Below are positions 187 through 19,700 of a stretch of DNA of 28,217 nt, piece after piece. The stretch's first letter is position 1; each line of letters starts with the position of its first letter. The notes beneath the pieces are model-generated. The model worked only from the letters and a program-made list of their open reading frames with translations, was not told the origin of the DNA and ran no database searches. A program made the position numbers and the translations under genes. This DNA is from Candidatus Lloydbacteria bacterium RIFCSPHIGHO2_02_FULL_50_18 (GTDB lineage: Bacteria > Patescibacteriota > Minisyncoccia > Phycocordibacterales > UBA6899): the NCBI GenBank assembly GCA_001821395.1, contig MHLM01000005.1, forward strand, positions 1-28,217, given 5' to 3'.

Positions 187-531
187 TTGTTTTCCTCCAA
201 CATGAGTCTCCACTCAGTCAGATTTATTGATTCTATCAGACGGTTGAGCGATATTATGCGAAAATTAACAAAGGTGGGGATAAAAAAAGTAACAAAAAAT
301 CAATTTTACACATCAATGCATGCCACCTCTCAAAACATGCCCCATCTCATCGTATATGCCACCGTAACGAATGTATTTTCTCAATCCCAACCCCCCCCAC
401 GACAAAATTACGTAAAGCCTCCTAAAACCAAAGATGGGCAGGACGCTTTTTTTATTAAAAATCACAAAACATTTTTACTGTTTGCATAGAGTCTGTTGCT
501 TCGTTTCACTGATGCATGAGATGATGTACTC

Positions 532-1209
532 ATGATTAAAAAAATCTTTACCACTCATCACAAGAAGATCATCGTCGGTGCACCGATCGTTTTTTTAGTC
601 ATTGTGAGCGGAGGAGGGATGTTCGGTAGCGGAAATTATTTTTCATTCGCTTCAAATAATAAAAATTTTCCTATCGTCGGAGACATGCTGCCGGTCACAT
701 TAGCAATGAACGCCGACACCCCGATCAATGCGGTCGGAGGGACGGTAACATTTGATCCGGACATGCTCAATGTTACATCGTTGTCACGCGTCACCTCGTC
801 CATCGACCTCTGGAGTGAAGAGCCTTCATATTCGAACACGGAAGGCACATTACATTTCTCCGGCGGACTTGTCGGAGAAAAAGCGTCACTCCCAATACAC
901 GGGACGATACTCACCATTAACTTCACCGTGCTCAAGCCGGGAAAGACCGTCATCACGATGAAAAACGGAGAGCTGCTCGCACACGATGGCGAGGGAACCA
1001 ACGTCGCATTAGGATCAAACACACTTTCCCTATATACACGTGAAATGAAAAATGCTTCCCCTGATGTCAACGGGGACGGCGTACTCTCAGTGAGCGACGC
1101 AAACGCACTGTATCTAAAAACTTTTTTTACCTATGATCCGCAGTATGACCTGAACGGGGATGGGAGGGTGAGCTGGGCTGATGTACGACTCCTCATTTCC
1201 CTCTTCTAG
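532..1209 (+). CDS. Small membrane-anchored protein (225 aa) with an N-terminal signal anchor, a cohesin-like domain and a C-terminal type-I dockerin
   Basis: The N-terminus IIVGAPIVFLVIVSGG is hydrophobic. The central domain carries LWSEEPSY, HFSGGL and ILTINFTVLKPGKTVI, motifs shared with the 348-aa and 581-aa proteins downstream. The C-terminus DVNGDGVLSVSDANALYL...DLNGDGRVSWADVRLL is two dockerin-style Ca-binding segments (DxNGDGxV). Confidence 0.8.
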   Translation: MIKKIFTTHHKKIIVGAPIVFLVIVSGGGMFGSGNYFSFASNNKNFPIVGDMLPVTLAMNADTPINAVGGTVTFDPDMLNVTSLSRVTSSIDLWSEEPSYSNTEGTLHFSGGLVGEKASLPIHGTILTINFTVLKPGKTVITMKNGELLAHDGEGTNVALGSNTLSLYTREMKNASPDVNGDGVLSVSDANALYLKTFFTYDPQYDLNGDGRVSWADVRLLISLF

Positions 1210-3322: not shown

Positions 3323-4369
3323 TTATACATCGACTGAATCTGATACAGGACCCTCGCTCCTCATCTTGCGGCGACGAAGCCATATCCACACGAACGCAAT
3401 CGCCAAAACCGTTCCTCCGATCAAAGACAACCAATAACGAACGATCACCATTGTATCGCGCGAAGAAGCCAGCGGAGCTTTTGCTCCATTTTGCGGAGGG
3501 AGAATCGCTTCAGAAATATTTCTCGCATGATCATATGCGCGCACTGTTACCCTACTCTTGAGCTCCTGATCGATGAGCACATACGGGCTTTTTGCCGTGA
3601 CAAATAGGGCTTTCTCGTATTTCTTTCCGCGCACGAAACCGAATTGCTCCGGATCGTCCTCTGATACTTCATAGTGATCTACTCCACTTTGTTTGTCGAC
3701 CGTTGAAAAGATAATGAAATATTTTCCCTGAAAAGTGTTCGCCTCTTTTGCCAGCTCTATGCGAAAAAGTTCAGGGGGTGTCGTATCTTCGAGTACAAGA
3801 TCGATCCATTCATTTTTCATCCCAAGCGAATTGAGTTCACGGACATAGGCACCTGAAACAAGCGTGAGCGGCGCCTGTGTTCCGAATCCGTCATTCAAAA
3901 GCACTTTCGTCTCCGTGCCAAAGGTGACCGCAAGCGCTTCCGGACCCGACGCAGTCTTTCCCCCGATCATGTTTCCGGGAATGGTAAAAATGATCTTGGC
4001 GAGAATATTTGTCTTTCCCGGATCGCCCTGCACGCGACCACAATATCCGGCGGGAATCCCTCCATCGAATCGTACGACACCATTATCAAGATCGATCATC
4101 GGCTCCTCGGGCCAAAGCGTGAACAATGACTCCCCCTTTGAGATGGCGGATGCCTTCATCCAATCGGTCGGATAATTGACCACAATCGATGCTGCGTTCA
4201 CGCATTCATCGTGGGCGGTATCGAGCCGCACCGTCAGCACAAACGTGTCACCGGGACCGAAATTACCATCCGGTGGATCGATCGAAAGTGTGGCAGCGTA
4301 CGCAACGGGCAGAGCGAGGACCAAATAGCTCATGACTGACAAGAGAATGTGTGCTGATTTACTTTGCAT
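3323..4369 (-). CDS. Membrane-anchored surface protein (348 aa): signal peptide, cohesin-like domain, Ig-like domain, C-terminal TM
   Basis: The signal peptide is MQSKSAHILLSVMSYLVLALPVAYAA. LWPEEPMI, RFDGGIPAG and IIFTIPGNMIGGKT are shared with the other two cohesin-like proteins. The C-terminus is WLSLIGGTVLAIAFVWIWLRRRKMRSEG. The stop lies 17 nt upstream of the next gene's start. Confidence 0.85.
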   Translation of the reverse strand: MQSKSAHILLSVMSYLVLALPVAYAATLSIDPPDGNFGPGDTFVLTVRLDTAHDECVNAASIVVNYPTDWMKASAISKGESLFTLWPEEPMIDLDNGVVRFDGGIPAGYCGRVQGDPGKTNILAKIIFTIPGNMIGGKTASGPEALAVTFGTETKVLLNDGFGTQAPLTLVSGAYVRELNSLGMKNEWIDLVLEDTTPPELFRIELAKEANTFQGKYFIIFSTVDKQSGVDHYEVSEDDPEQFGFVRGKKYEKALFVTAKSPYVLIDQELKSRVTVRAYDHARNISEAILPPQNGAKAPLASSRDTMVIVRYWLSLIGGTVLAIAFVWIWLRRRKMRSEGPVSDSVDV

Positions 4370-4428
4370 GTTTTAATTCATTGAACTTCTCCATTGTACC
4401 CCCCTTCCATTCTAATTTCTATCCCTAA

Positions 4429-4479: not shown

Positions 4480-5691
4480 TTAGCCTGTCCAATTAAAGAG
4501 TAAGATCGAGAAATCAGTGAGATTCACGGCACCGTCGACATTCAAATCTGCAATCGCATGAGCGGTCCCCCAATGAAAGAGCAGGATAGAAAAGTCGACC
4601 AAGTTCACTTTGCCATCACCATTTAAGTCCGCATTCCCGGGTGTTTGCACGTCGCGTGTACCGACATAAAAGTTCACTGCCTGGCTAAAACCGCTCTTCG
4701 CCTGAGCTCCGACTCCGAATTGTTCGAACATACCCTTGATCGCATGAAATGCCTCATTCTCAATTCCTGTTGTAGGTACCGTCGCGTTCCAAAGACCGGA
4801 AGCGGACGACGTTGCCGTGGCACGCGGACTTGTCTCTTTATCCATGAACAACGAAACTTTTGCATTAGGGGCGGTCGAACCAAGCGCATCAAGCAATTCA
4901 TCCATGCTGATCTTTTTGGACTTCAAGTCGATCGTCGGAGGTAAGAAAACATTCGATACTGACGTGACCGCATTTTGTGTCACCTGAAATGTCGTCGTGA
5001 AAGTGATCGAGCGCACCCCCCTACCGTCGGTAGACCAAAAACCGAACGTGATAGGACCCGGCGTGACATTTGATGTCTCGTATGAAAAATCAGCGGCGGC
5101 ATCAGTCTGAACGACACCGACGATACTGCCATCCTTGAGGATGTTTACCGACGTATTTGGATATGCTTTCCCCTCGAGAATAACGCGTGTTTGCGCATGC
5201 ACGGGAACAGTTCCGTTAAAGACACCGCCGCCGCCGGAACCTCCCGATATGACCGGCGGAGGGGGGGGTGGTGCTGGAGGTGTTGACGTCGAAAGCGGAG
5301 GGGCTTCTTGTACGCAAGTCGCACTGCATAGGTCGCCACTCGTATTGTTCCCATCATCACACTGCTCAAGATACAGTGCCTGCAGGGCGTTATCTCCACA
5401 GTATGGGCCGTACCCTGAACACGTCGAATTACAGCGCCGCGCGGCAAAACTCGGCCCATAGGCTCCGTCGTTGAACAATCCATCGTCACATACCTCACCC
5501 GGGTTGAGTATCCCGTCATTGCAGATAGAGATCATGATCGTCGTCGTCGCTACCGCCGCAAGGAGACGAGCGGGAACAATGATCGAGAACAGTGCGGAAA
5601 AAAATAGGGTGGATACGAGCACGAGGTGAAGAGACTTCTCTCTATGTCCGTGTGCAGAAGCCCGCGAAATGAGTCGTTTGAGATGAAACAT
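4480..5691 (-). CDS. Membrane-anchored protein (403 aa): N-terminal signal anchor, two Myxococcus-type cysteine-rich repeats, Pro/Gly linker, beta-rich domain, C-terminal type-I dockerin
   Basis: CNDGILNPGEVCDDGLFNDG...CNSTC and CGDNALQALYLEQCDDGNNTSGDLCSATCVQE fit the cysteine-rich repeat pattern (C..GE.CDDGN...GD.CS..C). The linker is STPPAPPPPPPVISGGSGGGG. The C-terminus DLNGDGKVNLVDFSILLFHWG...DLNVDGAVNLTDFSILLFNWTG is a duplicated dockerin Ca-binding segment plus helix. Only 9 nt separate it from the upstream gene. Confidence 0.85.
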   Translation of the reverse strand: MFHLKRLISRASAHGHREKSLHLVLVSTLFFSALFSIIVPARLLAAVATTTIMISICNDGILNPGEVCDDGLFNDGAYGPSFAARRCNSTCSGYGPYCGDNALQALYLEQCDDGNNTSGDLCSATCVQEAPPLSTSTPPAPPPPPPVISGGSGGGGVFNGTVPVHAQTRVILEGKAYPNTSVNILKDGSIVGVVQTDAAADFSYETSNVTPGPITFGFWSTDGRGVRSITFTTTFQVTQNAVTSVSNVFLPPTIDLKSKKISMDELLDALGSTAPNAKVSLFMDKETSPRATATSSASGLWNATVPTTGIENEAFHAIKGMFEQFGVGAQAKSGFSQAVNFYVGTRDVQTPGNADLNGDGKVNLVDFSILLFHWGTAHAIADLNVDGAVNLTDFSILLFNWTG

Positions 5692-5700
5692 AGGTCCGAA

Positions 5701-6750
5701 TCACCTTCTCCGAGAGAGGTCGACAACTCCACCCGAGGAAGCGGCGCTGCGAGGTCGTCTCGGCGACTCACTTTCTGGGGGGTCACGATGCCGAGCGTCA
5801 TCATTGCTCGCGCGTTCTCTCCTCCGTCTTGGTTTTTTCATCCTAAAGAACATCACAAACATGATCAGCAATGCAAGCGTTCCTATCGGCAAAATGACAG
5901 AAAGTTGCTGTGAAAGTTTTAGCCCCTCAAACCCATATTCTTCATAACCGGTAATGGTCCCCCTCGGAAGAATGGAGAGCGCGAGTTCTCCCGCTTGAGC
6001 ATTACGCGTTTCATCTTTTTCAATCGAATACTTGACGCGATACGCTCCGGGAGGAAGCCATGTCGGGAAATAGGCGACGACTTTCTTTGTGTCAAACGGG
6101 AGGACGGAATCGACGGTATTTGAATTTTCGGTGGTTTCAAGCAATTGCTGTCCGGACACGTCAAAGATCTGCAACGAGACCTTGTACGGTATCGCCGGAA
6201 CATTGCCGATATTTTCAATGTACATTGCAAACTTCACCTTACCCGGAAAAGAGAGCCACCATTTTTGATGACCTTCCTCTGCCTCGAACAACTCAACACG
6301 GCGCACTGAGAAATCAAATATCTGATCCACTACCTTCAGCTGGACGTCGATCTGCGCACCGAGCGCAAGCGAAACACCGGTGGACTGACCCGCGGAGGAA
6401 GATGTACGGATACGAATGTTCCCGTTGTAACCGCCGAGTTTTGCATCATCGGGAACACGAACGGTCACATGGAGCTTCACCTGTGATTCGCCCTTTGGTA
6501 ATACAAATTTAATTCCGCGATCAAAAGAGAACCAGGATTCAATAGCGGGAAGATTCAAAGCAAGTTCGGCGTTCAAGTCCTCAACGGGATCACTGCGTAC
6601 AATGATGATCTCCTGCGTATATTCTGAACCGGGGCGTAATGTGTCGTTGTGCACGTATGGAGGAGTAATGCCAAAACCCGCGAATGCCGTATTCGCAAAA
6701 GCTCCGTAAAGAAGCATCGAACCCATTACAAAAAGTATCCCTCGTTTCAT
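5701..6750 (-). CDS. Surface protein (350 aa): signal peptide, beta-sandwich-like body, C-terminal TM and a strongly basic Arg-rich tail
   Basis: The track ORF 5701..6972 was trimmed to the Met at 6750, where the signal peptide MKRGILFVMGSMLLYGAFANTAFA starts. The C-terminus is LPIGTLALLIMFVMFFRMKKPRRRRERASNDDARHRDPPESESPRRPRS. An extended -10 box lies 19 nt upstream. The architecture is loosely reminiscent of the DUF916/DUF3324-type cell-surface proteins of Gram-positives, but this was not verified. Confidence 0.8.
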   Translation of the reverse strand: MKRGILFVMGSMLLYGAFANTAFAGFGITPPYVHNDTLRPGSEYTQEIIIVRSDPVEDLNAELALNLPAIESWFSFDRGIKFVLPKGESQVKLHVTVRVPDDAKLGGYNGNIRIRTSSSAGQSTGVSLALGAQIDVQLKVVDQIFDFSVRRVELFEAEEGHQKWWLSFPGKVKFAMYIENIGNVPAIPYKVSLQIFDVSGQQLLETTENSNTVDSVLPFDTKKVVAYFPTWLPPGAYRVKYSIEKDETRNAQAGELALSILPRGTITGYEEYGFEGLKLSQQLSVILPIGTLALLIMFVMFFRMKKPRRRRERASNDDARHRDPPESESPRRPRSAASSGGVVDLSRRR

Positions 6751-6769
6751 GGAAAATTGGGGCTCAAGC

Positions 6770-6778
6770 ATTGTAACA
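6770..6778 (-). promoter_or_regulatory. Extended -10 promoter element TGTTACAAT for the 350-aa surface-protein gene
   Basis: Plus-strand ATTGTAACA at 6770-6778 is the reverse complement of TGnTACAAT. It sits 19 nt upstream of the ATG at 6750. No convincing -35 was seen. Confidence 0.4.
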
Positions 6779-7278
6779 CATACAAAAAGCGAGTTTTTAG
6801 CGGGATAGGTAGACTGGGGACTAGCGGTGGATAAGATGGCGCTCGGGTTTTCTTCTTTTGAAAGGAACATCATCAATTTTTCCAGCAAAAATTGTGATTC
6901 TGCTCGGCAAGCCAGGCTTAGCCAGGGGCAAAGACCGAGCCCTGGCTCAGAAGCCTCCGCAAGTCCTTTCAAAAGAAGAAAAACCTCGCTTGGAAAAGGG
7001 CGAGTTCTGCGCTAGGGGCTCCGAAGCAACGAGTCTCTCTCGCTTAAAAAAATATGTGCTTCAACGCTGCTGGGGTACCGAAAGTATCTACTCACCTCGC
7101 TGAAGAGGAAAATGACGTATATTTCCGCATCCGAGGCGATTTCACAAAGCAAACACCCCTTTTAGAGAGAGATGGGGGGGGAACTGTGATACAAGAAAAG
7201 TATTTAGGTTACGGATATTCTTATAACTATACCACCAAGATTCCTATTACAAAGCCGGGTAGCACGTAAGGGAATTAT

Positions 7279-7718: not shown

Positions 7719-9596
7719 TTACCAGTAGGTGCGATCGGAGGTAATACCTAAGATAGTATTTTGTCCCAAGTAGTCACCCGAAACAGTGATGGTGCCCGGT
7801 ACCGCAATTCCCCAATGTGTCGTCTTGTATGCCTGAGTTGCGGTCGTTGTTGATTTTTCGATATGAACAGCAAACGTTGCTCCCGGGTTAGCGAGGAGTG
7901 AAACTGCTGATGCATACGCTATCGATGAGGTGGCATAGCGCTGATTTGCAACAACGATAGTATCTGTTGGTAGACCGGAACAAGCTGCGGGGTATCCAAT
8001 ACACATGTCTGCCCCATAGAGCGTCTCATCAAGACCAAGATTGCCTGCTGCGTACATGTCAGTACGATTGAGCGATGAGTTCCCTACGGTCCCTGAGTCA
8101 TTGCCCGGCTGCAATCCACCGTATGCGATCGTCGTCGTTGAAACACTGTAAGCAAGGAAACTCGTGAGCTCGTTGCCACTTGATGCATCCACTAGGGAGC
8201 TGGTGGCAAAATTATTATCGGCGGCTTGCGCCGAAGCGAGCCAGTTTTGCGCCCAATAAGTAGGGTCGGTAGCAGGACCACCGGTTCCGTCGGTCGCGTC
8301 AGCTACATACCAGAGCGGGAATGTACAGTTCCAGATAACGTCAGAATCACCTGTTCCGAGGCAGGAAGCTGGACTTGCCGTGCACGTCACGTTCCAAGCG
8401 ATACTCGTGGTTGCCGCAGCACCAGGGTAGCAGTTATTCGCATTATACCACTGAGACTTATCACAGAATGCGCTCGTGATACCGGAGCGATAGACATCGG
8501 TCAATCCGAAGACGATCTCATTCGTCGAGGATGCAGTCTGACAGCTGTTCTGGTCCGATACCGTATATTGGACACTAAAGCCCGGCGTTTGCGTTGCGAT
8601 ACCAGTAAGTATTAAATTTCCCGAGCCATCTGTATCAAGCAAACTAATAGAGGCAGCCGCGATCGTTGGTGTCATATTATTAACAATGAGCGAACGATTG
8701 GTCCCCTGCATTCCACCCAGGGCCGCGAGGCCACCATGGGCATCGATCACATAGCCATATGCGGCGAAGGTACCATCCGGGTCAGGATTTGGGAGGACAA
8801 CCGTTGTCGTTGGTGTTGCAGTAGCGAACGGCGAAACTCCCCATGTGCCCCCCGCTCCGCATGCTGTACCCGTAAAGTCTGCTGCTTTGCAGACGAACAG
8901 TTCAACAGTGTCAGTATCCGCACCTTGATACGTATCGGGGTCAGATGATGTCGCGTACCAATTGACCGTGCCTCCGGGATTCGTCGGTGAGTCATTCACA
9001 AAGAGCGTAAAGGTCGGACGATGATTCACTACAAACGGTGATGATGTTGTCCCACTACCTGATTTCGGCGTTGGATTGCATGCAGCGTTGACGGCATTTC
9101 CGTCGCAGATATACGCATACCAATCGTTGAATTCTGCACTAAATTGGGAGCCCGTGCCTTCAGTGGTCGTTGTTGCAACGGTTGACGTTGCCCCCGACAG
9201 TGTCGATGCAGACCGTATCCAGCGATTACTGACACCTCCCCCGCATTCCGGAGCTCCGCCATTCACGGGAGTTGGCGCAGACAATGCCTTACAAATGAGC
9301 AGGTAATAGTTATCTCCTGATGAGTCAGTGACGTTGGCTCTCCATGTGACATTTTGCGATACATTTGTTGGTGTCGACGTAGATGAACCCGGAGCTTCCT
9401 GCGCATCCCCATACGGACTATTCCATTGCGGTGGCGTATTTAGCACGGTAACTGAGGTCGTCGCATTATTTGCTAGGGCAACATTCCCACGAGGCACGTC
9501 GATGACAACTCCAAGCATGATAAGGCACACTCCAAGCAATGTAGTGGCAATAGTGATCTTCCCTCCGATCGTTGTATGAGAGTTTTTGAGCGTCAT
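7719..9596 (-). CDS. Secreted or membrane-anchored Ser/Thr/Gly/Asn-rich protein with many cysteines (625 aa); function unknown
   Basis: The N-terminal hydrophobic segment is KITIATTLLGVCLIMLGVVI. The body is low-complexity S/T/G/N/A-rich with many paired Cys (e.g. LICKAL...ECGGG, ICDGNAVNAAC). The ORF is long and uninterrupted. A TATAAT box lies 14 nt upstream of the ATG. Confidence 0.75.
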   Translation of the reverse strand: MTLKNSHTTIGGKITIATTLLGVCLIMLGVVIDVPRGNVALANNATTSVTVLNTPPQWNSPYGDAQEAPGSSTSTPTNVSQNVTWRANVTDSSGDNYYLLICKALSAPTPVNGGAPECGGGVSNRWIRSASTLSGATSTVATTTTEGTGSQFSAEFNDWYAYICDGNAVNAACNPTPKSGSGTTSSPFVVNHRPTFTLFVNDSPTNPGGTVNWYATSSDPDTYQGADTDTVELFVCKAADFTGTACGAGGTWGVSPFATATPTTTVVLPNPDPDGTFAAYGYVIDAHGGLAALGGMQGTNRSLIVNNMTPTIAAASISLLDTDGSGNLILTGIATQTPGFSVQYTVSDQNSCQTASSTNEIVFGLTDVYRSGITSAFCDKSQWYNANNCYPGAAATTSIAWNVTCTASPASCLGTGDSDVIWNCTFPLWYVADATDGTGGPATDPTYWAQNWLASAQAADNNFATSSLVDASSGNELTSFLAYSVSTTTIAYGGLQPGNDSGTVGNSSLNRTDMYAAGNLGLDETLYGADMCIGYPAACSGLPTDTIVVANQRYATSSIAYASAVSLLANPGATFAVHIEKSTTTATQAYKTTHWGIAVPGTITVSGDYLGQNTILGITSDRTYW

Positions 9597-9616
9597 AAAA
9601 ACGTGTCTATATTATA
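9597..9616 (-). promoter_or_regulatory. -10 box TATAAT with a very short leader for the 625-aa gene
   Basis: The minus strand reads cctgTATAATATAGACACGTTTTT-ATG. The hexamer is at plus-strand 9611-9616, 14 nt from the start codon. No SD was seen. Confidence 0.45.
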
Positions 9617-9866
9617 CAGGAGCAATGCAAGAAAGAATTCAAAGTTATACACAGTTTTGCATGTTTCGTAAGATCGAGATCGACATGCGAGCAAACAAAA
9701 TGACGTCATCAAGGCGAATGGTGAACGAAAATACAGATACAACTGACAGGTAACCCCTGCTCAAGGAGCAGGAGCACAAGCATGAAATGACCCGATACTC
9801 GAAAAAATCACTACCAAGAATTGAGCGCTCTTAAAATCGTTGGGCTCAAAAAATAACGACAGGAGA

Positions 9867-11075
9867 CTACTTATATCTGATAGCGTCAAGCGGGTTTAAG
9901 CTTGCAGCGCGTCTCGCCGGGAAAACTCCAGTAAGAAAACCGACGATCGCAGAAAATACGGCGATGAAGGTAAGGAAGGTCAAGGGGAACGAAAAGAGAG
10001 AGACGGATTTTCCGCCAAAATTCGATGCGGCGACGTTCATAATACTATTCAGCACAAACCCAATAGTCGCACCAAAAAGAATTCCCATGATCCCACCGAG
10101 AAAACCGACGATGACGGCTTCCGCAACAAAGAGGATCTGAATATCACCGGAAGACGCTCCGAGCGTACGCATGATACCGATCTCGGCAGTACGCTCCAAG
10201 AGCGTCACGGTCATGGTGTTGAACATACCGATAGCAGACACCGTGAGCGCGATGCCACCGAATACTGCGAGTACCGCCTGAATACCCTGGAAGATCTTGT
10301 TCGCCTGTTCGACCGTCTTTGAAAGTGCGGTCACGACATACCCCTTCTTCACGATCTCCGTTTGTGTGGGATCAAGAAAATCACTTTTTGTGATACGCAC
10401 CTGTACTTTGTCGTATGTTTTTGTTTGAACATGATTCTGCAATTCCGAGAGTGGGATGATTGCGGCAATAAAATTTTCTTCGTTGGTGACCCCAACAACC
10501 TTATACGATTTATCGATGGCGACCTGCTCGGATTCATCAGTCCCCTCTTTCAATATGAACACACGAAAGTTCACCATTTTACCCAATGCATCTTTCGGCG
10601 TATTTATTGCAAAGAGTTTGAGCACCGCCTTGGTGAGAATCACTCCATCCTTATCTTTCGCCTCATTCCCCGCAAGGAAAAGATCTCCGGCAACAGCTGT
10701 CGCGCCAGAGTAACGAAAAAACGCTGGTTCTGCCCCCTGCAGGAAAGCATTACCCGAAAGTCCTTCAATGGTGATGAGCGCAGGAAAACTTGCAAGGGGT
10801 GTAACGTCCTTCACGTTAGGAAGTGCCGCAAATTCTTTTATGGAACGATCAGTAAGCTGAACCGCTTTCGACGGAGGATTATTGACCGAAAGCGAGAGCA
10901 ATGTTTCGCCGAAGACGATCTGCTCGAGGATGATGTTCTGCAATCCGAAGCCGAGACCAACGAGGGTCACAACGGCACCCGTTCCGACGCCCATGCCGGC
11001 AATAGTAAGCCACGTACGAGCCGGATTCGTCTTAAACGCACGCGTCGACAGCATCGCAATATCTTGAAGTCTCAT
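9867..11075 (-). CDS. ABC transporter permease, FtsX/MacB family (402 aa; TM1, large extracytoplasmic domain, TM2-4)
   Basis: The N-terminal TM is WLTIAGMGVGTGAVVTLVGLGFGL. A ~230-aa soluble domain follows. The C-terminus carries three TM helices and the FtsX-family signature ERTAEIGIMRTLGAS. Confidence 0.9.
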   Translation of the reverse strand: MRLQDIAMLSTRAFKTNPARTWLTIAGMGVGTGAVVTLVGLGFGLQNIILEQIVFGETLLSLSVNNPPSKAVQLTDRSIKEFAALPNVKDVTPLASFPALITIEGLSGNAFLQGAEPAFFRYSGATAVAGDLFLAGNEAKDKDGVILTKAVLKLFAINTPKDALGKMVNFRVFILKEGTDESEQVAIDKSYKVVGVTNEENFIAAIIPLSELQNHVQTKTYDKVQVRITKSDFLDPTQTEIVKKGYVVTALSKTVEQANKIFQGIQAVLAVFGGIALTVSAIGMFNTMTVTLLERTAEIGIMRTLGASSGDIQILFVAEAVIVGFLGGIMGILFGATIGFVLNSIMNVAASNFGGKSVSLFSFPLTFLTFIAVFSAIVGFLTGVFPARRAASLNPLDAIRYK

Positions 11076-11091
11076 AGCTCACTCTATTATA
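11076..11091 (-). promoter_or_regulatory. -10 box TATAAT plus conserved ATAGAGTGAGCT spacer directly abutting the permease start codon (near-leaderless)
   Basis: The minus strand reads tcTATAATAGAGTGAGCT-ATG. The hexamer is at plus-strand 11086-11091, with a 10-nt spacer to the ATG. The ATPase gene carries the same 18-mer pattern. Confidence 0.5.
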
Positions 11092-11387
11092 GAAGAGAAG
11101 TGGACGAAGACCAAGTGTTCATACCTCATATCTAAGCTATCTCGCAGGAGCGACACGACCAATACCCTCCCCGACTCGTCTTGATCACAACAAAAAAGCG
11201 CATCGAATTTGAAAACCCTAGAGCAAGTCAAAGATTTGGGATGAAATGCACCACAGGAGTACTTCCAAATTTCAGTACTCGAAGACTCGATGAAATTTTA
11301 GGTCGCAGGCGTCAAGGAAGGCGCGTGCTATTTTTAAAACTCTCAGATTTGGATGAAATTCGGGTGCGGCGACTGTGCGGTGTCGGA

Positions 11388-11460: not shown

Positions 11461-12789
11461 TTAATGGTGGGCTTCGCCGGTGCGCGGAATGCCTAGTGCG
11501 ATCAATTTCTCAATCAACCGCGAAACATCGAAAGACTGCTTCTTATTAAGCCCCACACCCCCCTCCTTCTGTGACAACCCTACCTGATCTGCAAATTCAT
11601 CACGCTTAATGAACCCTCCAATACGCTGAGCGATCGCATCTTCAAAATGTTGTTTTCCTGTTGCGTCAAGACTGAGGTCAAATTGTCCTGCAACAAATTC
11701 TGCTATACGATTGATAAACTCCATATTGCGGATCTGTACTCCCTCGCCGGTTTTTGCGCGGCGAAAACGTTGGATGTCGAGGGCGTGCTCATTGATGCTC
11801 ATGAGTTTTCCGGCCATCTCTGTTGCGCGAGCAACAGGAAGTCCGACTCCTCCCGTATCAAAATCAGCCATCAGCGAACGAAGATATGTTCCTCCCTCCA
11901 TACGCCCTGAGATGACTGCCTCAGTAATCTTCTGAAGCCGCGTGATCTGATCGAAGGTTAACTCCTCGATGAGATAGTTGACGATACTTTTCACTTGAAG
12001 CTCGTTCGGTGAGTCATATGGATAAATACGCGCGATCTGTTCAATTTCGGTCACGATAGTCGTGCCCGGTGCAAGTTTCAATATTTGTCTTTTTTCCGGA
12101 TTCGGAACGATGCGCTCGACGCGACCATCCGTCATATAAACAATGCGATGCGCGTACGGCAGGTACTTTGCGTCGTGCGTCACGAGGAGCACTGTTTTTT
12201 TGTCTTTTGCGTTGATCTCCGCCAATGTATCCATAACCTGAGCCGCAGTGATCGAGTCGAGATTACCGACCGGCTCATCAGCAATGAGGATCTGCGGATC
12301 GTTCACCAAAGACCGTGCCACTGACACACGCTGCTGCTGTCCACCAGAAAGAAGGGTTGGCCGCTTGTGAGCAACTTTATCGATCATGAATCGACGGCAA
12401 AGCTCCATCCCCCGGTCAAAGCGTTCACCCGGAGGCACGCCGTCAAAGATGAGCGGGAGTGCGACATTGTCGAGCACCGTGATCGATGGGATCAGATTGA
12501 ATGACTGATACATGATACCCATCGTCTTTCGCTGAAAGTGGACCATCTGCATCGGAGAGAAATCATAGATGCTTTCACCGTTCACATACATCTTCCCCGC
12601 GGACGGCTCAAGAACTCCGAACATACAATAGAGCAGCGTCGATTTTCCACAACCGGACGGCCCAAAAAGAATGATATATTCCTGGTCAAAGATCTCCACC
12701 GTTGCTCCCTTGTTCGCCTTAAACTCATTCTCCTTCCCAAGGTTATACGTGATCTCGATCTTGTCTCCAAATATAATCGGCTTTCCCAT
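11461..12789 (-). CDS. ABC transporter ATP-binding protein (MacB/LolD-like NBD) with a ~215-aa C-terminal extension of unknown function (442 aa)
   Basis: The ABC motifs are all present: Walker A GPSGCGKST, Q-loop MYQSFNL, signature LSGGQQQRVSVARSL, Walker B ILIADEPVGNLD and H-loop LLVTHDAKY. The ABC domain ends near residue 225. Residues ~226-442 (11464-12114) are charged, have no recognisable motif and read as alpha-helical. Confidence 0.9.
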   Translation of the reverse strand: MGKPIIFGDKIEITYNLGKENEFKANKGATVEIFDQEYIILFGPSGCGKSTLLYCMFGVLEPSAGKMYVNGESIYDFSPMQMVHFQRKTMGIMYQSFNLIPSITVLDNVALPLIFDGVPPGERFDRGMELCRRFMIDKVAHKRPTLLSGGQQQRVSVARSLVNDPQILIADEPVGNLDSITAAQVMDTLAEINAKDKKTVLLVTHDAKYLPYAHRIVYMTDGRVERIVPNPEKRQILKLAPGTTIVTEIEQIARIYPYDSPNELQVKSIVNYLIEELTFDQITRLQKITEAVISGRMEGGTYLRSLMADFDTGGVGLPVARATEMAGKLMSINEHALDIQRFRRAKTGEGVQIRNMEFINRIAEFVAGQFDLSLDATGKQHFEDAIAQRIGGFIKRDEFADQVGLSQKEGGVGLNKKQSFDVSRLIEKLIALGIPRTGEAHH

Positions 12790-12805
12790 AACTGACTCTA
12801 TTATA
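12790..12805 (-). promoter_or_regulatory. -10 box TATAAT plus conserved ATAGAGTCAGTT spacer directly abutting the ATPase start codon (near-leaderless)
   Basis: The minus strand reads taTATAATAGAGTCAGTT-ATG. The hexamer is at plus-strand 12800-12805, with a 10-nt spacer to the ATG. Confidence 0.5.
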
Positions 12806-12868
12806 TAGGAGCGAGGCGATTATGGACAATGAGCTTTACGCGGTCAGTGAATGAGCATCGAGCGGGGG

Positions 12869-12926: not shown

Positions 12927-13313
12927 ATGAATAATGAACAACACACCGTGCTTATCGTCGAAGACGACCAGATACTGCTCCGCATGCTTGCGAATATGCT
13001 CAAGGAAAAAGGTCTCATTGTGCTCGAGGCAAAGAATGGACTGGAGGGTATGGCGCAGATAGGTGCAGCAATCCCCGACCTCATGCTGCTCGATATCGAC
13101 ATGCCACAAATGGACGGAATCGCGATGCTACGCAACCTTAAGGAAAACAATATCAAGGTCTCAACACTCATGCTCACCAATCTGACCAATAGCACCTATA
13201 TTGCCGATGCCGCAGAACTCGGTGTCAACGAGTTTCTCGTCAAATCAGACTGGGAAATAGACGACATCGTCACAAAGGTCGAAGAAAAACTTCTTCGTGC
13301 ACACCACTCATGA
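12927..13313 (+). CDS. Stand-alone response-regulator receiver (CheY-like, 128 aa; no output domain)
   Basis: VLIVEDDQILLRMLANML carries the acidic pocket DD. The phospho-acceptor Asp sits in LMLLDIDMPQMDG. STLMLT and the conserved Lys in FLVKS are present. The protein ends right after the receiver fold. Its stop overlaps the kinase start (ATGA at 13310-13313). Confidence 0.85.
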   Translation: MNNEQHTVLIVEDDQILLRMLANMLKEKGLIVLEAKNGLEGMAQIGAAIPDLMLLDIDMPQMDGIAMLRNLKENNIKVSTLMLTNLTNSTYIADAAELGVNEFLVKSDWEIDDIVTKVEEKLLRAHHS

Positions 13314-14305
13314 ATGACCCGAAAAAAAAATCTTTTTTACGCCGCGTACTCTTCGCAAACTGCGACGCACTAGGAGTGGGGATCTGGTCCTGTCCAAGTT
13401 TCATCTTTCTCATCATGGGAGCGGTGATCATTGTTACTATCCTGACAACCTATGTGATCGCGGAACAACACGCTGATCCGGAAGTCGTGATCGCCATCGT
13501 AACACTGCTCACTGTTTTTCTGCTCATCATCACTCAGGTACTCGTCAACGCATTTGAAAAGATCGTGCGCAGTAGGCAGGTTGAAGCGGCTCGCACGAAA
13601 GAAGTCGCCGAACTCAAGGATCAATTCCTCTATCTCGCTGTTCACGATCTCGCCTCAGCGGCAACAGCGGTAAAGTGGGGTCTCAAAATGCTTGAACGGA
13701 ATCCGGATAAAACACAGACACCTTACGAGCAGGAAATTTTTAGCAGTATTCGTACGCGAAATGATCGACTCGTTACACTCGTTCATCAGATCGCCCTCAT
13801 CACACAGATTGAGCACGGAGAGATCATGCTCCACACTGAGCCAGTCCTCCTTTCGGAGCTATTGAATGATGCGATAAAGAAGCAGCGGGGAGGAGATGCG
13901 CCTGAACGCGCCGCTTGTAATATCGATATCGCACCACAACTTCCGCTCTTCATCACCGACAGAGATTTCTTCAACGAAATAATTGATACGCTTCTTTATA
14001 ATGCACGCATGCATGCTCCTCATGACGGATGCAACATAGCGATCTCCGCAAAAATTGAGGCCGATACGGTGCTCGTTGTCGCAGTGGAAAATAATGGTGA
14101 AGGAATACCCGCTGAACTCCAAGCGCATATCTTCGAAAAATTCTGGCGCAATGAAAAGACCGGGAAGATCGAGCGTGCCGGATTCGGACTCTATATTGCA
14201 CAGTCCCTCGCTCGTCTCCTCGGCGGGGATATCACCTTCACCTCTGACCCCACCATCACCTGTTTCACCCTTCGCCTCCCCCTCACTCCCCCCGTAAATA
14301 CCTAA
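13310..14305 (+). CDS. Sensor histidine kinase, intramembrane-sensing type (331 aa; two TM helices, almost no extracytoplasmic loop)
   Basis: The TM helices are FIFLIMGAVIIVTILTTYVIA and VVIAIVTLLTVFLLIITQVLV. The H-box is LAVHDLASAATAV. The ATPase motifs are N-box LLYNARMHAP, G1 VENNGEGIP, F-box IFEKFWR and G2 GFGLYIAQSLARLLGG. Confidence 0.85.
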   Translation: MNDPKKKSFLRRVLFANCDALGVGIWSCPSFIFLIMGAVIIVTILTTYVIAEQHADPEVVIAIVTLLTVFLLIITQVLVNAFEKIVRSRQVEAARTKEVAELKDQFLYLAVHDLASAATAVKWGLKMLERNPDKTQTPYEQEIFSSIRTRNDRLVTLVHQIALITQIEHGEIMLHTEPVLLSELLNDAIKKQRGGDAPERAACNIDIAPQLPLFITDRDFFNEIIDTLLYNARMHAPHDGCNIAISAKIEADTVLVVAVENNGEGIPAELQAHIFEKFWRNEKTGKIERAGFGLYIAQSLARLLGGDITFTSDPTITCFTLRLPLTPPVNT

Positions 14306-14578: not shown

Positions 14579-16078
14579 TTATTTTCCGATGTTTTTGACC
14601 CATCCGAAGGTCCCCTGGAAGTTCTCAAGAATGATATCAATGATCGATTTCTCTTTATTCGGAGTGAATAAGACGAAGTTCTCTGATTTTGTTTTATTGC
14701 GTGCCTCATCACGACATTCAACCCAGAACTGATATACCGTTGACGGCAGGAACTCGACGACGACTGACACATGGTCAGTGCGCGGTTCCTTCTCTTCACC
14801 AAGTCCGCTCGGCTCGATCGCCGGGTTCAATCCTTCGCGATAAAAGAACTGACAATATGCCTGCTCGTCCGTTCCCCAGGAAACGATGGTCTGCACTTTC
14901 GCATCTGCGGAAGGAAACAGAGTTGATTCATTGGAAACCTTGGAGATGATGGGCGGAGCAATGTCCTTGATCGTCGTGAACGAGATCGGCGCTGATGTTA
15001 CTTTGTCTCCGACGATATTCTCGGCCTTCACGATGGCCGTATAGCGAAGACCGAGCGAAAGTCCGGCGATCTTCAACTGATGCGATAGTGCAAAGACCGG
15101 TGAACCCGCGGACTTCGCCTCCTTCGTCTTTGTGTTCGTATATTCGACGGTCCCGGCGGCAGGAATCGAGGTGCGCCATGCAACGGTCGCGGAATCTGCC
15201 TCAACTTTAATGATGCGGAAATTCATGATTGACGGCAGCTGTGCCTTCGTAATGAATGTATCATCGCGAGACTCTCCCGTGAGCCCGAGGTCCGAATCAG
15301 AGACGACCTGAAAATGGTGGAGGGTTCCCGGGGAAAGCCCGTTCACGCGCACAGAATGTTCACGCGTTCGCTCACCGGCATCACCGGATTCTGTGCTATA
15401 GGCCTTATCCGTTCCGGGACGATAGTCGCTATCGCGCGCATAGCGCACTACCCCACCGGCGTCCTGATCGGTCGACCATGTCACTATCGCATAATCACTC
15501 CCCACTTCTTTCACCCCCGGACTTCCGATGATGCGTGGCGCTTCAAGTACCTTCTTTGCGACATCATCAATTTCCTCGGACACAGCCCGGAGCCCCTCCA
15601 TGGACTTCAATTGACGAACGGAAGTGATGGCACGATCGACAATCACTCTTTCGTCTACGGGAATTTTCTCGAGTTCTTTTGCGCTCATGACACCCTTGGT
15701 CGTAATGGTGTAATCACCGGAAAGCGCCTGATTGCCCCCCTCGTCGGAAGAGCCAATACGCAAATGGTACATCGTTGACGGCTCGAGGCCTTCAAGAATA
15801 AGACGATGTGTTTTTTTATTCGGTATCGAGTCACGAATGACACCGTAGTCTTTTGTCAGACCAAAATTCACTTCCGAGTCCGCGTCCTCATCAGTATTCC
15901 ACGTGATAACAGAAGTCGTTGCATTCAATGAAACAATCTCAATATTCGACAATCTTGGGGGGATCCCGTCACCGGAAACTTGAGCGAACAAAGAGGCAGG
16001 ACCGAACAGGCCATACCCAATAGCACCTCCAACCAGAGAAAGGGATGCGAGGACTCCGAGTTTGTTCATGAAGCGCAT
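14579..16078 (-). CDS. Secreted protein with four Fn3-like repeats of the purple-acid-phosphatase N-terminal type (500 aa from the MRFMNK start)
   Basis: The track ORF 14579..16171 was trimmed to the ATG at 16078, where the signal peptide MRFMNKLGVLASLSLVGGAIGYGLF begins. Four ~95-aa repeats carry the T-W-x-T-D and ...V.YG motifs: SVITWNTDEDADSEVNFG, YAIVTWSTDQDAGGVVRYA, ATVAWRTSIPAAGTVEYT and TIVSWGTDEQAYCQFFY. Confidence 0.8.
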   Translation of the reverse strand: MRFMNKLGVLASLSLVGGAIGYGLFGPASLFAQVSGDGIPPRLSNIEIVSLNATTSVITWNTDEDADSEVNFGLTKDYGVIRDSIPNKKTHRLILEGLEPSTMYHLRIGSSDEGGNQALSGDYTITTKGVMSAKELEKIPVDERVIVDRAITSVRQLKSMEGLRAVSEEIDDVAKKVLEAPRIIGSPGVKEVGSDYAIVTWSTDQDAGGVVRYARDSDYRPGTDKAYSTESGDAGERTREHSVRVNGLSPGTLHHFQVVSDSDLGLTGESRDDTFITKAQLPSIMNFRIIKVEADSATVAWRTSIPAAGTVEYTNTKTKEAKSAGSPVFALSHQLKIAGLSLGLRYTAIVKAENIVGDKVTSAPISFTTIKDIAPPIISKVSNESTLFPSADAKVQTIVSWGTDEQAYCQFFYREGLNPAIEPSGLGEEKEPRTDHVSVVVEFLPSTVYQFWVECRDEARNKTKSENFVLFTPNKEKSIIDIILENFQGTFGWVKNIGK

Positions 16079-16093
16079 GCTCTCTATAGTATA
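16079..16093 (-). promoter_or_regulatory. -10 box TATACT plus ATAGAGAGC spacer abutting the Fn3-gene ATG (near-leaderless; same family as the ABC promoters)
   Basis: The minus strand reads gaTATACTATAGAGAGC-ATG. The hexamer is at plus-strand 16088-16093, 9 nt from the ATG. Confidence 0.4.
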
Positions 16094-16121
16094 TCGCAGA
16101 ACCGATAGAAATGAATAGAAA

Positions 16122-16150
16122 AACGCCGAACTCATAAAAAGTTCGGCGTT
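16122..16150 (-). terminator. Rho-independent terminator of the small beta-strand protein gene
   Basis: AACGCCGAACT (16122-16132) forms a perfect 11-bp GC-rich stem with AGTTCGGCGTT (16140-16150) around a 7-nt loop. On the minus-strand transcript it is followed by UUUCUAUUCAUUUC. Confidence 0.6.
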
Positions 16151-16180
16151 CACTGTGCATATCCATTCCACGCTGCGCCG

Positions 16181-16663
16181 TCAATCAAATAGACGACCCA
16201 ATTCTTTGAACGGTATTTTTATACCGACAAAGATAAGCCCCTGCCCGTTGGATACCGGAGGAATGACGATGCCATAGATGCCAAAATGTTTATATTGCTT
16301 CGAGAATGAAGGGAGGATAACGCTCCCTACCGCTCCATTTTGATAATTCGGATACCCGTCCACATACCCCATCGTGGCACCGACTCTCACCCCCCAAATT
16401 TCCCACGGATGATAATGTGCAAATGCATAGTTCGACCGCAGCCCAAAGCTATTCTTATAGAAGCCCGCGGAGATCGCGGTGTTTGAATTCAATTGATATT
16501 CAACACCGAGTCCGAGATTCACTTCATTGTGCGGTGAGTCATGGGGCATGTGATAACTAAAGCCACCCGTTTGCAGCTGCCACGTACCAACCGGTACACC
16601 CTGTGCGAATGCCGTCCCCGAACCAAGCACGATAGCACCGGCGCAGATCATTTTGATGAACAT
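16181..16663 (-). CDS. Small secreted beta-strand-rich protein (160 aa), outer-membrane beta-barrel-like; the resemblance to PagL/acyloxyacyl-hydrolase or OmpW-type proteins is tentative
   Basis: The signal peptide is MFIKMICAGAIVLGSGTAFAQG. The body alternates hydrophobic and polar residues with Gly/Tyr-rich turns (GVEYQLNSNTAISAGFYKNSFG; GIYGIVIPPVSNG). An H-x-S (HDS) motif is present. The SD-like GGAGAG lies 4 nt before the ATG. The family assignment is not verified. Confidence 0.6.
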   Translation of the reverse strand: MFIKMICAGAIVLGSGTAFAQGVPVGTWQLQTGGFSYHMPHDSPHNEVNLGLGVEYQLNSNTAISAGFYKNSFGLRSNYAFAHYHPWEIWGVRVGATMGYVDGYPNYQNGAVGSVILPSFSKQYKHFGIYGIVIPPVSNGQGLIFVGIKIPFKELGRLFD

Positions 16664-16756
16664 GGGATCTCTCCAATCAACGTTCTTTCTCTCTTATTTG
16701 TACGCGTGCTACCTAAAATGTCAATTACCTCACGGCCACGCGATGTCTCATCAATA

Positions 16757-19700
16757 CTATTGAGCAAAGAAGTAATTTGTCCCCGAGTGTGTACTCGCTG
16801 CAGTACCAAGCGGTACGGCAAGCCCCCAATAGATATCACGGAAAAATGCACTCGTTGATGTTGGTTTAGTGATGGCAACCGGGAAATAGGTCGGACTCGA
16901 TGAGGCGGACAGGATGTTGCATGTCGTACATGCACTATATGTGAACGTTGAAGTTGAATATTTTTGCTGACTGTAGGAAATAGAAGATGCACCTGCTGTC
17001 ATAGGATCCCCACCAATACCGAGATTAAGAACGGTATTACCAGTGTTATTGACTGTCGTCGTTGCGTCGGAAGCACCAGTGTCGGCACCCACGACAACGG
17101 AACCAAAACTGATGGTCGAAGACGCGCTCATGGCCTGGAGCGTAAGCACCTCTTGCGAGGCCGACATCGTGTCATATGAACTTGAGGTGTCCCACACGGA
17201 CAATATCGCCTGCCAATTATCCGCATTGAAATAACTCCCCGCATCCGTTGGATCAGCAAAGTATTTCATCGGTGCAGAACATGAAACCTCGCAACTATTT
17301 CCGGAGCAGCCATAGAGCGAGCATGATGATGTTCCGATCTGGTAACAATTATTGAGGTCTGCCGTACACGAACCTCCTCCTGCGACACTCGAACGATAGA
17401 AGGTCGATGATGCGGCAATAATATCAGCGTACCCGTTCAGGTCGGAGAGGGTTGCGGTTGCGCTGATCGTTGTCGTCGTACCTTCGGTGAGCGCGATATT
17501 GCTGTTCCCATTGAATGTCAGATCGGCGATAACAGGAGGATGGAGCACGGTCATTTCCGCGACTCTTGAATAGTTATCAAGCGGGGTGCCGGCATCGGTC
17601 GCACGGAAACAATACGCATTCTGCACTGCATATGCGGTCACCATTTGGAAGTTGTACTCAACCTCAGTGAACGATAATGCAGGGAGTGCCATCGGATTCG
17701 TCTGTATGGAGGCGTCTTTCATGATCTCGCCGTTCACGAACGTATGCAGCGCAGGAATCGAGAGTAACTGCGTGGTCGATGCTTTGTCGGTAAACTGTGT
17801 CGATGCCGCCATACATGCGGGACTCGTTCCGCACGAACCATTCGGAGTGACATCGATATAATTTCCTGTCGGTACCGATTCACAGTTCGGCGACGAAAGT
17901 TTTTCCGCTACCTGGAGTCGGAATTGTTTATTCGTGAGCGGAAGTCCGGAATTCCTGACCGTCATACGCAAGCGAATATTCTCGCCCGCAAGCTGGTTCA
18001 CGAGCACGGTATTCTCTGCCGCCTTCCATGTTGCTCCTGAGTCCGCCTGCTCAAGACCAAAATCAACGCCGGGGGCGCTTGAAATATATTGTCGTGCAGC
18101 AGGGGTATCCCAACCGCTGTGTTGATACCAGAATGTGAAGCCAACTCCACCGGATGTATAAGTAGAATCAACCGCAGAAGTCGTCGCAAAAACTGCCCCA
18201 GTATCGTCGTACACCGTGACATTGATCTGGTTATTTGAAAGCCAGTCAATGGATGTTTCATACCAATGTAATCCATTTGGCCACGTAACGCTTGTGGTGC
18301 CAATTTCTGACGCGCTCCCACTGTGAGAATTGTATGCCACGTTTTTTGCAATGGCTACCTTATCTGCTCCGGCAGCCTCAAGACAGACAGCGTAATTTTG
18401 ATGGGCGGTGATGGGCGACTGGATCGCGAACATGAAACATGGCTCATCAGAATTATCAGCTGTTATATTAATCTGCTGGAAAAATCGGAATGTCGTGTCG
18501 CGACCGACACCAGCCCCAACCTGGCCGATACCACTTGTATTCTGGGCGGTGGTATTTCCTGCCGAGGCAGAAAGTCCATAATTGCCCTCATGGTATATTG
18601 ATGCGCTATTCGCGAATAGCGAAACATCTCCGGAATATTCAGAAAGGTTATTGTCCTCAAAGTCATCGAAGAATTTGAAGGTTGAGGTACCGCTTGACCC
18701 GGCCGCAACACTTGCGTTGCCGTAGTACATGAAGATATCGGTCACGGCAGAGCCGGTAAGCGTAGGGACCTTCACCCAAACGGTCGACGAGCCGCTTGTC
18801 ACATAGGTTTCCACCCAATAAGGTATCGAGGTCGTACCGCCCGAGTCGGTAAAGCGCAGATCGTTGAAATTACTCTGCATGTCCGCATCATACGGCACAT
18901 TCATCTTTACCTGCGCGTTCGTAACGGTCGACGCCGAATTATTCGTGATGCGGACCCGCTGACGTTTTGACCAGCTCTGGCTGTACCATTCGGTCGCAAG
19001 CGCTCCCTCCCCTCCGTCGTCATTGCGCCAACGATACGTCTTCTGGTCGGAGAACAGACAGGAACTATCAGACCAACGGATGGAGCCGCAGGCATCAATA
19101 CCGTCGTTATCATACTTTTCACTTGCCATGTTCCCATGCTCATAGGTCCAGGTGATCGCATTCGTTGTCGTACCGATACGACTCACATTCGCACCGCCAA
19201 TAGCGGTCGTCGTTGCAAAGCGCACCTGCGAATACTGCGCCGACGCGTTTTGATCAATGGTCGATGAAGCGATAGTGATCATACTCCCACCATTCGTCGC
19301 AAGCTCGAAATCGCCATTATTCATTCCCGTGATCGTTGTCGTCCCGGTCAAATTGAGCCCCGTCGCATCAAGATTCCTGAATTGGTAATAGTTCGCATTC
19401 AAGGTCGCGTCACTCACCGTAAGACCGTAACTTCCGCTCGCAATACGATCGACCGTTGTTGATGCGGCGGCGACACCCACCATTTGCAGCGATGAATTCG
19501 TGCTGAACACTGCGGTTGCTCCCGCACCAAAGCGCACGTTGACCTGTCGAGCGCTTCCGCCTAACGCAACGCCGTCAAAGTTGGTCGCATAGCTCCAGTA
19601 GTCCGTTCCCGAGACCCTGGCATATGCTCCATAGATATTGAGTGCACCTGAAACAGCACCATGGTTCTGCGAGTAGAGCGATGCGTTCGCGGGGATCTGA

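Follow-up and report, generated by a model that had tools for sequence, protein, structure and literature searches.

A conserved TATAAT-AGAGT-N-AG block directly before the start codons of a subset of Candidatus Lloydbacteria genes, with predicted near-leaderless mRNAs

The window analysed here, a stretch of 28,217 nucleotides, comes from Candidatus Lloydbacteria (Parcubacteria, candidate phyla radiation), an uncultured groundwater bacterium. The same locus is present on contig MHLI01000011.1 (GCA_001818945.1), as well as on several groundwater metagenome contigs, and its nearest relatives among the collected genomes carry the labels Candidatus Lloydbacteria or Parcubacteria. Four minus-strand genes are of primary concern, encoding a MacB/FtsX-type ABC permease, an ABC transporter ATPase, a secreted Fn3 protein, and a protein of 625 aa; two further genes, one of 160 aa and one running off the left end, serve as contrast cases (Table 1). 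A two-component pair (12927..14305, plus strand) is divergent from the ATPase gene and consists of a response regulator of 128 aa, without an output domain, and a kinase of 331 aa. Rfam and tRNA scans of the window gave no matches.

The giant open reading frame at 16757..28153 (minus strand) continues past the right end; the window covers >3798 aa of it, and longer contigs from this population extend it to ~6245 aa, with DUF2341. Its promoter is not contained in the window. The proteins encoded at 532..1209 (plus strand) and 4480..5691 (minus strand) carry cohesin and dockerin type I domains as well as DUF4215; in a candidate phyla radiation genome, this points to a surface assembly resembling a cellulosome. 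All assemblies of the population (L207-L215) break ~500 bp to the left of the 225-aa gene (window ~1..530), and the region at this end includes a C run at ~390..400 and A-rich tracts; the break may represent a repeat or a strain-variable junction.

Table 1. Promoters, genes, and Shine-Dalgarno (SD) contrast cases in the window; L-numbers denote related loci.
Feature	Position	Strand	Description
Permease promoter	11076..11114	(-)	-35 TTGGTC 11114..11109, CT-rich 17-nt spacer, TATAAT 11091..11086, AGAGTGAGCT, ATG 11075..11073
Permease promoter, detail	AGAGT 11085..11081; predicted start A/G 11080..11079; leader ..AGCT	(-)	Conserved in L007, L009, L010, L011, with diverged flanks
MacB/FtsX-type ABC permease gene, 402 aa	9867..11075	(-)	Pfam MacB_PCD and FtsX
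ABC ATPase promoter	12790..12829	(-)	-35 TTGTCC 12829..12824, 18-nt spacer, TATAAT 12805..12800, AGAGTCAGTT, ATG 12789..12787
ABC ATPase promoter, detail	AGAGT 12799..12795, C, AG 12793..12792, TT	(-)	Conserved in L007, L009, L010, L011
ABC transporter ATPase gene, 442 aa	11461..12789	(-)	Pfam ABC_tran
Fn3-gene promoter	16079..16093	(-)	TATACT 16093..16088 overlapping TACTAT 16091..16086, AGAG 16085..16082, AGC, ATG 16078..16076
Fn3 orthologues in L007, L010, L011, L012			Read TATAAT-AGAGTAAG(T/C)-ATG
Intrinsic-terminator-like hairpin	16121..16151	(-)	13 pairs and a T run, directly upstream of the Fn3 promoter
Secreted Fn3 / purple-acid-phosphatase-N domain protein gene, 499 aa from ATG 16078	14579..16078	(-)	Pfam; start conserved in orthologues
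625-aa gene promoter, different class	9597..9657	(-)	AAACTGTGTATAACT box ~9657..9643; TGTATAAT 9618..9611; 14-nt non-conserved stretch; ATG 9596..9594
SD contrast case, 160-aa gene	16661..16674	(-)	GGAGAG 16674..16669, 5 nt, ATG
SD contrast case, gene running off left end	184..198	(-)	GGAGGA 198..193, 6 nt, ATG 186..184

The initial annotation had quoted four strings upstream of the permease, ATPase, Fn3, and 625-aa genes as copies of one promoter motif, and all four are present on the minus strand where it had placed them. It was also right that the promoters abut the start codons and that no SD sequence precedes them: a search for GGAG, GAGG, and AGGA at these four starts found none, and the gap between the -10 hexamer and the ATG is 10 nt for the permease, 10 nt for the ATPase, 7-9 nt for the Fn3 gene, and 14 nt for the 625-aa gene. 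The N-terminus of the permease is conserved from residue 1 in 80 genomes, and such conservation of the N-termini indicates that the ATGs are real starts. The -10 elements are exact TATAAT in the permease and ATPase promoters, and TATACT or TACTAT in that of the Fn3 gene. The -35 element of the permease, at 17 bp, is kept as cTTGGT in L009-L011, while the -35 regions of the ATPase promoter (an element at 18 bp) and of the Fn3 promoter are poorly conserved across species. The ATPase promoter was the top sigma-70-like match in a promoter scan (score 10/12).

The Fn3 gene is called at 496-518 aa on identical contigs, with different callers yielding three start positions. The sequence before the ATG at 16078 reads TATACTATAGAGAGC, and the better of the two overlapping hexamer registers is that of TACTAT (TACTAT-AGAGAGC-ATG), which matches the rest of the family and leaves a gap of 7 nt to the ATG; in this register the Fn3 mRNA is predicted to be essentially leaderless. 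The terminator-like hairpin directly upstream of its promoter indicates that the Fn3 gene is a transcription unit of its own.

As the promoters end 7-10 bases before the ATG and no ribosome-binding site is present, the mRNAs are probably almost leaderless. With gaps of this size, compared to a lineage-wide peak at 6 nt, the flagged genes are best described as near-leaderless rather than strictly leaderless. The two contrast genes do carry SD sequences, as had been noted in the initial annotation, in the arrangements GGAGGA-N6-ATG and GGAGAG-N5-ATG. Clear GGAG or GGAGG sites at 5-8 nt are found in the window as well as in the related locus L220, where an SD site precedes ~11 of 34 genes, and the notion of an SD-less lineage was rejected for Lloydbacteria.

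Sharing of the motif holds for the permease and the ATPase, where it is exact, and for the Fn3 gene in the TACTAT register; it does not hold for the 625-aa gene. Upstream of the latter the sequence reads cTGTATAAT, ATAGACACGTTTTT, ATG, and although both the AAACTGTGTATAACT box and TGTATAAT are kept in all six species, the discriminator differs in every orthologue. Because the bases that follow the hexamer are not conserved, this site is a look-alike that lies outside the family. The AAACTGTGTATAACT box is located ~25 nt upstream of TGTATAAT in the window, L007, and L009-L012, and could be a regulator site or a second promoter.

Promoters of other kinds are also found in the window and its relatives. 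A third promoter type is characterized by a run of 6-9 G directly before TACAAT, TAGACT, or TACTAT, located 7-11 nt before the ATG (for example ggggggTACAATggagaagttca-ATG and gggggggTAGACTttaataaat-ATG); it occurs at ~4380..4400 (minus strand) in the window, upstream of the gene 3323..4369, as well as at 3131 in L007, 1421 and 6804 in L009, and 7329 in L008. At ~4355..4369 (minus strand) the window reads ATG AAT TAA AAC ATG, compared to ATG AAT AAA AAC in L007, so that a single A-to-T change places a stop after two codons, and the 336/348-aa gene of this strain must therefore start at a downstream ATG. Orthologues of the window gene 5701..6972 (L007 15033, L010 13430, L011 13705, L012 13234) share a conserved (T)TACAAT 17-18 nt before the ATG and a conserved CCCTA, not SD-like, 6-7 nt before it; the callers disagree on the start of this gene (341-390 aa).

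Comparison across species separates the block from its surroundings. Synteny of the gene cluster extends to five related species (L007, L009-L012), with protein identities to the window ranging from 98% to ~35%, whereas the stretches of 90 nt that precede the Fn3, ATPase, and permease genes are unalignable between the window and these species except for the block. The elements that are kept comprise (Y)TA or TTC, TATAAT, AGAGT-N-AG, and the ATG, as well as cTTGGT at the -35 position of the permease, and in the comparisons where TATAAT-AGAGT-N-AG is kept, protein identity is ~59-83% at its lowest. Preservation of the block amid diverged upstream DNA argues that it is under selection. Its sequence, conservation, and register are seen directly: AGAGT always lies immediately 3' of the hexamer, while the distance from the hexamer to the ATG may be 6, 7, 8, 9, or 10 nt, yielding for Lloydbacteria and close relatives the family consensus (CT-rich spacer)-TATAAT-AGAGT-N-AG-(0-2 nt)-ATG. 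With the register fixed to the -10 hexamer and the distance to the ATG variable, the block belongs to the promoter and not to a ribosome site. The ATAGAG block of the initial annotation combines the last two bases of the hexamer with AGAG(T) at the discriminator position, and it moves with the hexamer rather than with the ATG. A reading of TAGAGT as the true -10 element with exact leaderless starts was rejected, since the distance to the ATG would then be 2-5 nt across the family.

The same register bears on a translational role, in which the purine-rich AGAGUGAG stretch would act in the mRNA as a degenerate, close SD sequence or enhancer pairing with the 3' tail of 16S rRNA. The stretch is indeed purine-rich and includes GAG triplets, and some variants read GGTGA (the ATPase gene of L009). 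Nevertheless, this role is very improbable, as the 0-5 nt left before the ATG are too few for SD function, the bases that would pair are not conserved (GTGAG, GTCAG, GTAAG), AGAGT would remain untranscribed if transcription starts ~7 nt after the hexamer, and the motif in true SD genes of these genomes is GGAG or GGAGG, at 5-8 nt. The individual pairs proposed for it, GAG with CUC and GUGA with UCAC, are equally improbable; the 16S 3' end carrying the anti-SD was sought in the fetched loci, and none was present there.

Statistical support for the motif depends on how strictly it is defined. The exact 19-mer pattern TATAATAGAGTNAGNTATG is found twice in the window (permease and ATPase) compared to 0.00 expected from 100 shuffles, whereas a loose search allowing 2 mismatches in the window alone returned 4 sites against 3.6 expected, which is not significant. 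Since the loose search is not above chance, the claim of a motif rests on the exact matches together with the cross-species conservation. The loose search would agree with chance resemblance, or with recent local duplication of one promoter, without any selected function, and so would the occurrence of the same 17-mer by chance or in unrelated elements across metagenomes. Such an origin is nonetheless barely credible in view of the excess of exact matches and the retention of the block through complete divergence of the flanks in five other species, at five to seven non-homologous genes; moreover, 14 of the 16 exact copies of TATAATAGAG in Parcubacteria loci are located 6-13 nt before the ATG of a long open reading frame.

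Nearly all of the matches listed (at least 120) in a metagenome scan with CTATATAATAGAGTNAG were unrelated, for example those to a recurrent human-gut element and to AT-rich coding DNA of marine origin; L134 (pilC) alone among them was of the cassette type, so that as a census the scan is uninformative. The human-gut element carries the same 17-mer in the arrangement acccacagcagttgtggatttttgaaaaag-CTATATAATAGAGTCAG-tggttactgttgcttgagcg at L087, L088, L096, L097, and >20 other metagenome loci; it is highly conserved and unrelated, and probably represents the promoter of a phage or of a mobile element that is widespread. The pilC match led to the type IV pilus loci. In L229 (PilC protein of GW2011_GWA2_47_7, the genome of L009), pilC reads ccta-TATAAT-AGAATGAGGT-ATG and pilB reads TATAAT-AGAAGAAGCACTTTT-ATG, while in Lloydbacteria MHLO01 (L223/L224) pilC reads TATAAT-AGAGAGGAT-ATG. 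The motif is not present at the type IV pilus locus of a third genome (L226). The cassette also precedes a response regulator and a cohesin/dockerin gene, each in a single species only.

Altogether about 230 kb of Lloydbacteria-type DNA were sampled, ~124 kb from cluster loci and ~107 kb from loci not linked to the cluster. The latter include three regions fetched with SufB as a handle (L216, L220, and L222; 60 kb, ~84 called genes), of which L220 (21 kb, from a sister genome) shares the assembly JAYSTI01 with L007, the permease of which is 98% identical to that of the window, and L216 and L222 come from related genomes. None of these three SufB regions contains TATAATAGAG, and the expectation that the motif would be a general feature of the promoters of the genome is thus contradicted. 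The promoters found there are of the TGn-TAYAMT type with unrelated discriminators, several of them strictly leaderless (TGn-TATACT or TACACT), and many GGAG-type SD sites are present as well. The SufB promoter itself, TATACT/TATAGT-GTCAAG, is conserved in Lloydbacteria-like genomes (L008 ~3190, L216 6223, L220 10001, L222 10001) at 7-14 nt before the ATG, and its discriminator differs in sequence from AGAGT. Absence from these ~60 kb indicates that the AGAG block is not simply a general preference of the polymerase. Instead, the cassette marks a subset of promoters, namely those of the ABC exporter, the Fn3 protein, and pilB/pilC. Of the 142 genes that the callers define in Lloydbacteria-type loci, a -10 element precedes the start by 5-12 nt in 25, an SD-like word is present in 29, and neither is seen in 88.

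Confinement to a functionally coherent subset of genes, with absence from the housekeeping SufB regions, is what would be expected of an operator, that is, of a quasi-palindrome around the -10 element to which a transcription factor binds. A surface and export regulon of this kind, unlikely as it is, would include the MacB-type ABC exporter, the secreted Fn3 protein, PilB/PilC of the type IV pilus, and the cohesin/dockerin protein, a membership that is no more probable than the operator itself. The CT-rich left and AG-rich right flanks do create an inverted repeat, TCTAT/ATAGA, which takes the form TCTAT-A-ATAGA (1-nt spacer) at the permease and TCTAT-ATA-ATAGA (3-nt spacer) at the ATPase, Fn3, and pilC genes, with arms overlapping the -10 hexamer. 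A two-component system is present inside the cluster, and a TrmB-family regulator adjoins pilC in L223 and L226. However, the spacing of the half-sites differs by 2 bp between the promoter types, which is unusual for a dimeric factor, and the block is always in a fixed register with TATAAT. The response regulator of the cluster, furthermore, consists of a receiver only (128 aa) and lacks a DNA-binding domain, no regulator that binds DNA is conserved beside all these loci, and short AT-rich palindromes around TATAAT easily arise by chance. The permease promoter forms a near-palindrome, CTCtTCTAT-A-ATAGAgtGAG (11076..11100, both strands), as a result of which its opposite strand also reads TATTAT-AGAA.

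The coexistence of two promoter classes in the same genomes, one with a -35 element, TATAAT, and AGAGT at a gap of 8-10 nt and the other with TGn-TATACT/TACACT at a gap of 6 nt and no conserved discriminator, might point to a second factor of the sigma-70 family, the promoter class of which would be distinct from the TGn-TAYAMT extended -10 promoters of strictly leaderless housekeeping genes. Both classes, though, have a near-consensus housekeeping -10 element, whereas alternative sigma factors usually diverge at the -10 or the -35, and we consider such a factor quite improbable. The reading that we prefer is that these are promoters of the housekeeping sigma factor (sigma-70 family), placed so that transcription would start at the start codon or a few bases before it, and, judged from the sequences available, it is the probable one. 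Put most simply, they would be strong sigma-70-type promoters that form a class specific to the lineage and give rise to near-leaderless mRNAs.

Placement of promoters directly before start codons extends well beyond the window. In a survey of 869 open reading frame starts (first ATG) in the window and 80 Parcubacteria loci, with TA[TC]A[AC]T as the strict -10 element, 40 hexamers are located at exactly 6 nt before the ATG against a background of ~2 per position, and a second mode follows at 8, 9, 10, and 11 nt (13, 18, 16, and 11 hexamers, 58 in total). SD-like 4-mers form almost no peak among the same starts. After the removal of duplicates and of the Lloydbacteria clade, 39 sites remain in the 6-nt mode and 41 in the 8-11 nt mode, so that the class with predicted short leaders matches the leaderless one in size. 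Of the 41 non-clade sites in the 8-11 nt class, only 6 offer another TANNNT hexamer 5-7 nt from the ATG, and only 2 are accompanied by an SD-like word, as are 2 of 14 clade members. An in-frame alternative start 3 nt upstream in the 9-nt class was rejected, the codons at that position being AGT, ATC, ACT, and similar.

The pile-up of -10 elements before ATGs is a direct observation, as is the pyrimidine-purine signature that accompanies it. Of 38 sites in the 6-nt class, 36 have a pyrimidine at position 6, just before the ATG. Among the 47 sites of the 8-12 nt class, pyrimidines occupy position 6 in 66% and purines occupy position 7 in 81% (C in 2%), and in the 10-nt class of the clade, position 7 is A in 6/6 and position 8 is G in 6/6. 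The leaderless mode of expression suggested in the initial annotation therefore has a clear signature in the lineage, consisting of a -10 element exactly 6 nt from the ATG and a pyrimidine before it, and is joined by the 8-11 nt class. The signature at positions 6 and 7 of the 8-12 nt class predicts a start ~7 nt after the hexamer with leaders of 2-6 nt, and the 8-11 nt class would accordingly yield leaders of 2-5 nt.

From these observations we infer the start sites, the polymerase contacts, and the route of translation. AGAG(T) would fill the discriminator, which separates the -10 element from the start site; the likely start (+1) is the conserved A/G located ~7 nt past the hexamer, with the next G falling at +2. 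In better-studied bacteria, the G at -5, located two bases past the -10 element, makes contact with sigma region 1.2, and a G at +2 is held in the core-recognition pocket of RNA polymerase, on the beta subunit; together with the start element Y-1 R+1, these are known sigma-70 elements. The G two bases after the hexamer and the G at +2 of the cassette presumably match these polymerase contacts, and the block is on that account most simply viewed as a lineage-specific, near-optimal initiation region. That the block is not explained by the sigma-70 consensus, as initially claimed, is correct insofar as it lies outside both hexamers, but it falls within known sigma-70 architecture, at the discriminator and the core-recognition position. 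We know of no nameable contact that would explain A, A, G, and T at -6, -4, -3, and -2. Such an initiation region may stabilise the open complex and fix the start site, producing mRNAs with leaders of 0-5 nt (AGCU-AUG, AGUU-AUG, AGU-AUG) and no SD sequence. Translation would then be of the leaderless type, with the ribosome and initiator tRNA binding the AUG near the 5' end. The promoter itself is ordinary in kind, and the start sites are predicted throughout.

We can speculate further that Parcubacteria routinely express SD-less mRNAs with leaders of 2-5 nt as a major class beside leaderless ones, and that Lloydbacteria add a dedicated cassette, TATAAT-AGAGT-N-AG-N-T-ATG, which would hard-wire the start of transcription to the start of translation for surface and export genes. 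This extension is tentative, and we hold it to be doubtful rather than probable; leaders of that length are strongly disfavoured in all species tested to date. Candidate phyla radiation bacteria have reduced ribosomes, and, were the extension true, it would imply a ribosome tolerant of mini-leaders, possibly tied to these reduced ribosomes and to the variable anti-SD of this radiation, or alternatively an RNA polymerase with its start point 10-11 nt past the -10 element. Gene expression in the candidate phyla radiation is almost unstudied because so few of its members are in culture. A sequence rule based on a promoter that abuts the ATG, giving a leaderless mRNA or one with a predicted 2-5 nt leader, would improve the prediction of gene starts in thousands of metagenome-assembled genomes, and the data provide concrete predictions for the 5' ends in metatranscriptomes. 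A literature search for leaderless expression in the candidate phyla radiation, Parcubacteria, or Patescibacteria found no dedicated study; what is described here is a known gene layout in a lineage for which that search found no description.

Comparison with known systems reveals both common features and differences. A Pribnow box about 6-8 nt from the start is the hallmark of leaderless genomes assigned to GeneMarkS-2 'group C' (PMC6028130), in the main text of which candidate phyla radiation lineages are not named. As in the leaderless genes of Actinobacteria and Deinococcus-Thermus (group C), the -10 element lies directly upstream of the ATG, no SD is present, and SD-led genes coexist; Parcubacteria also share the peak at exactly 6 nt and the pyrimidine at -1. 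Unlike in group C, the gap in the flagged genes is 7-10 nt, which predicts leaders of 1-5 nt rather than none, and the second mode of Parcubacteria, at 8-11 nt, holds about as many sites as the mode at 6 nt. Caulobacter, Mycobacterium, and Haloferax show a strong loss of leaderless translation when as few as 1-5 nt precede the start codon; mRNAs of this kind are rare there, and those with leaders of 2 nt or more are poorly translated (PMC8459731), which makes a conserved 3-5 nt leader on well-conserved genes unexpected; if the short leaders are real, they would contradict this pattern.

SD-independent initiation in Bacteroidota and Cyanobacteria (GeneMarkS-2 'group B') is similar in that many genes have no SD sequence. 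Nevertheless, group B mRNAs have leaders, and their upstream motif is also found before internal operon genes, whereas the signal in Lloydbacteria is a promoter and other genes use a GGAG-type SD. The published result that comes nearest to the subject of leaderless expression in the radiation is that no more than 48% of the 16S genes of Parcubacteria yielded a detectable anti-SD motif (PMC9297842). The cassette most resembles the discriminator and core-recognition elements of sigma-70 promoters, being located directly 3' of the -10 element and having a G at -5, a purine at the predicted +1, and a G at +2. Discriminators in Terrabacteria, there including one candidate phyla radiation species, are AG- or AT-rich (PMC12641261), and the cassette is likewise AG-rich. 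In turn, its consensus AGAGT-N-AG differs from the GGGA-type discriminator of E. coli and Thermus, and, unlike the usual sigma-70 discriminators, the cassette is conserved at more positions and is used by only a subset of the promoters of the genome.
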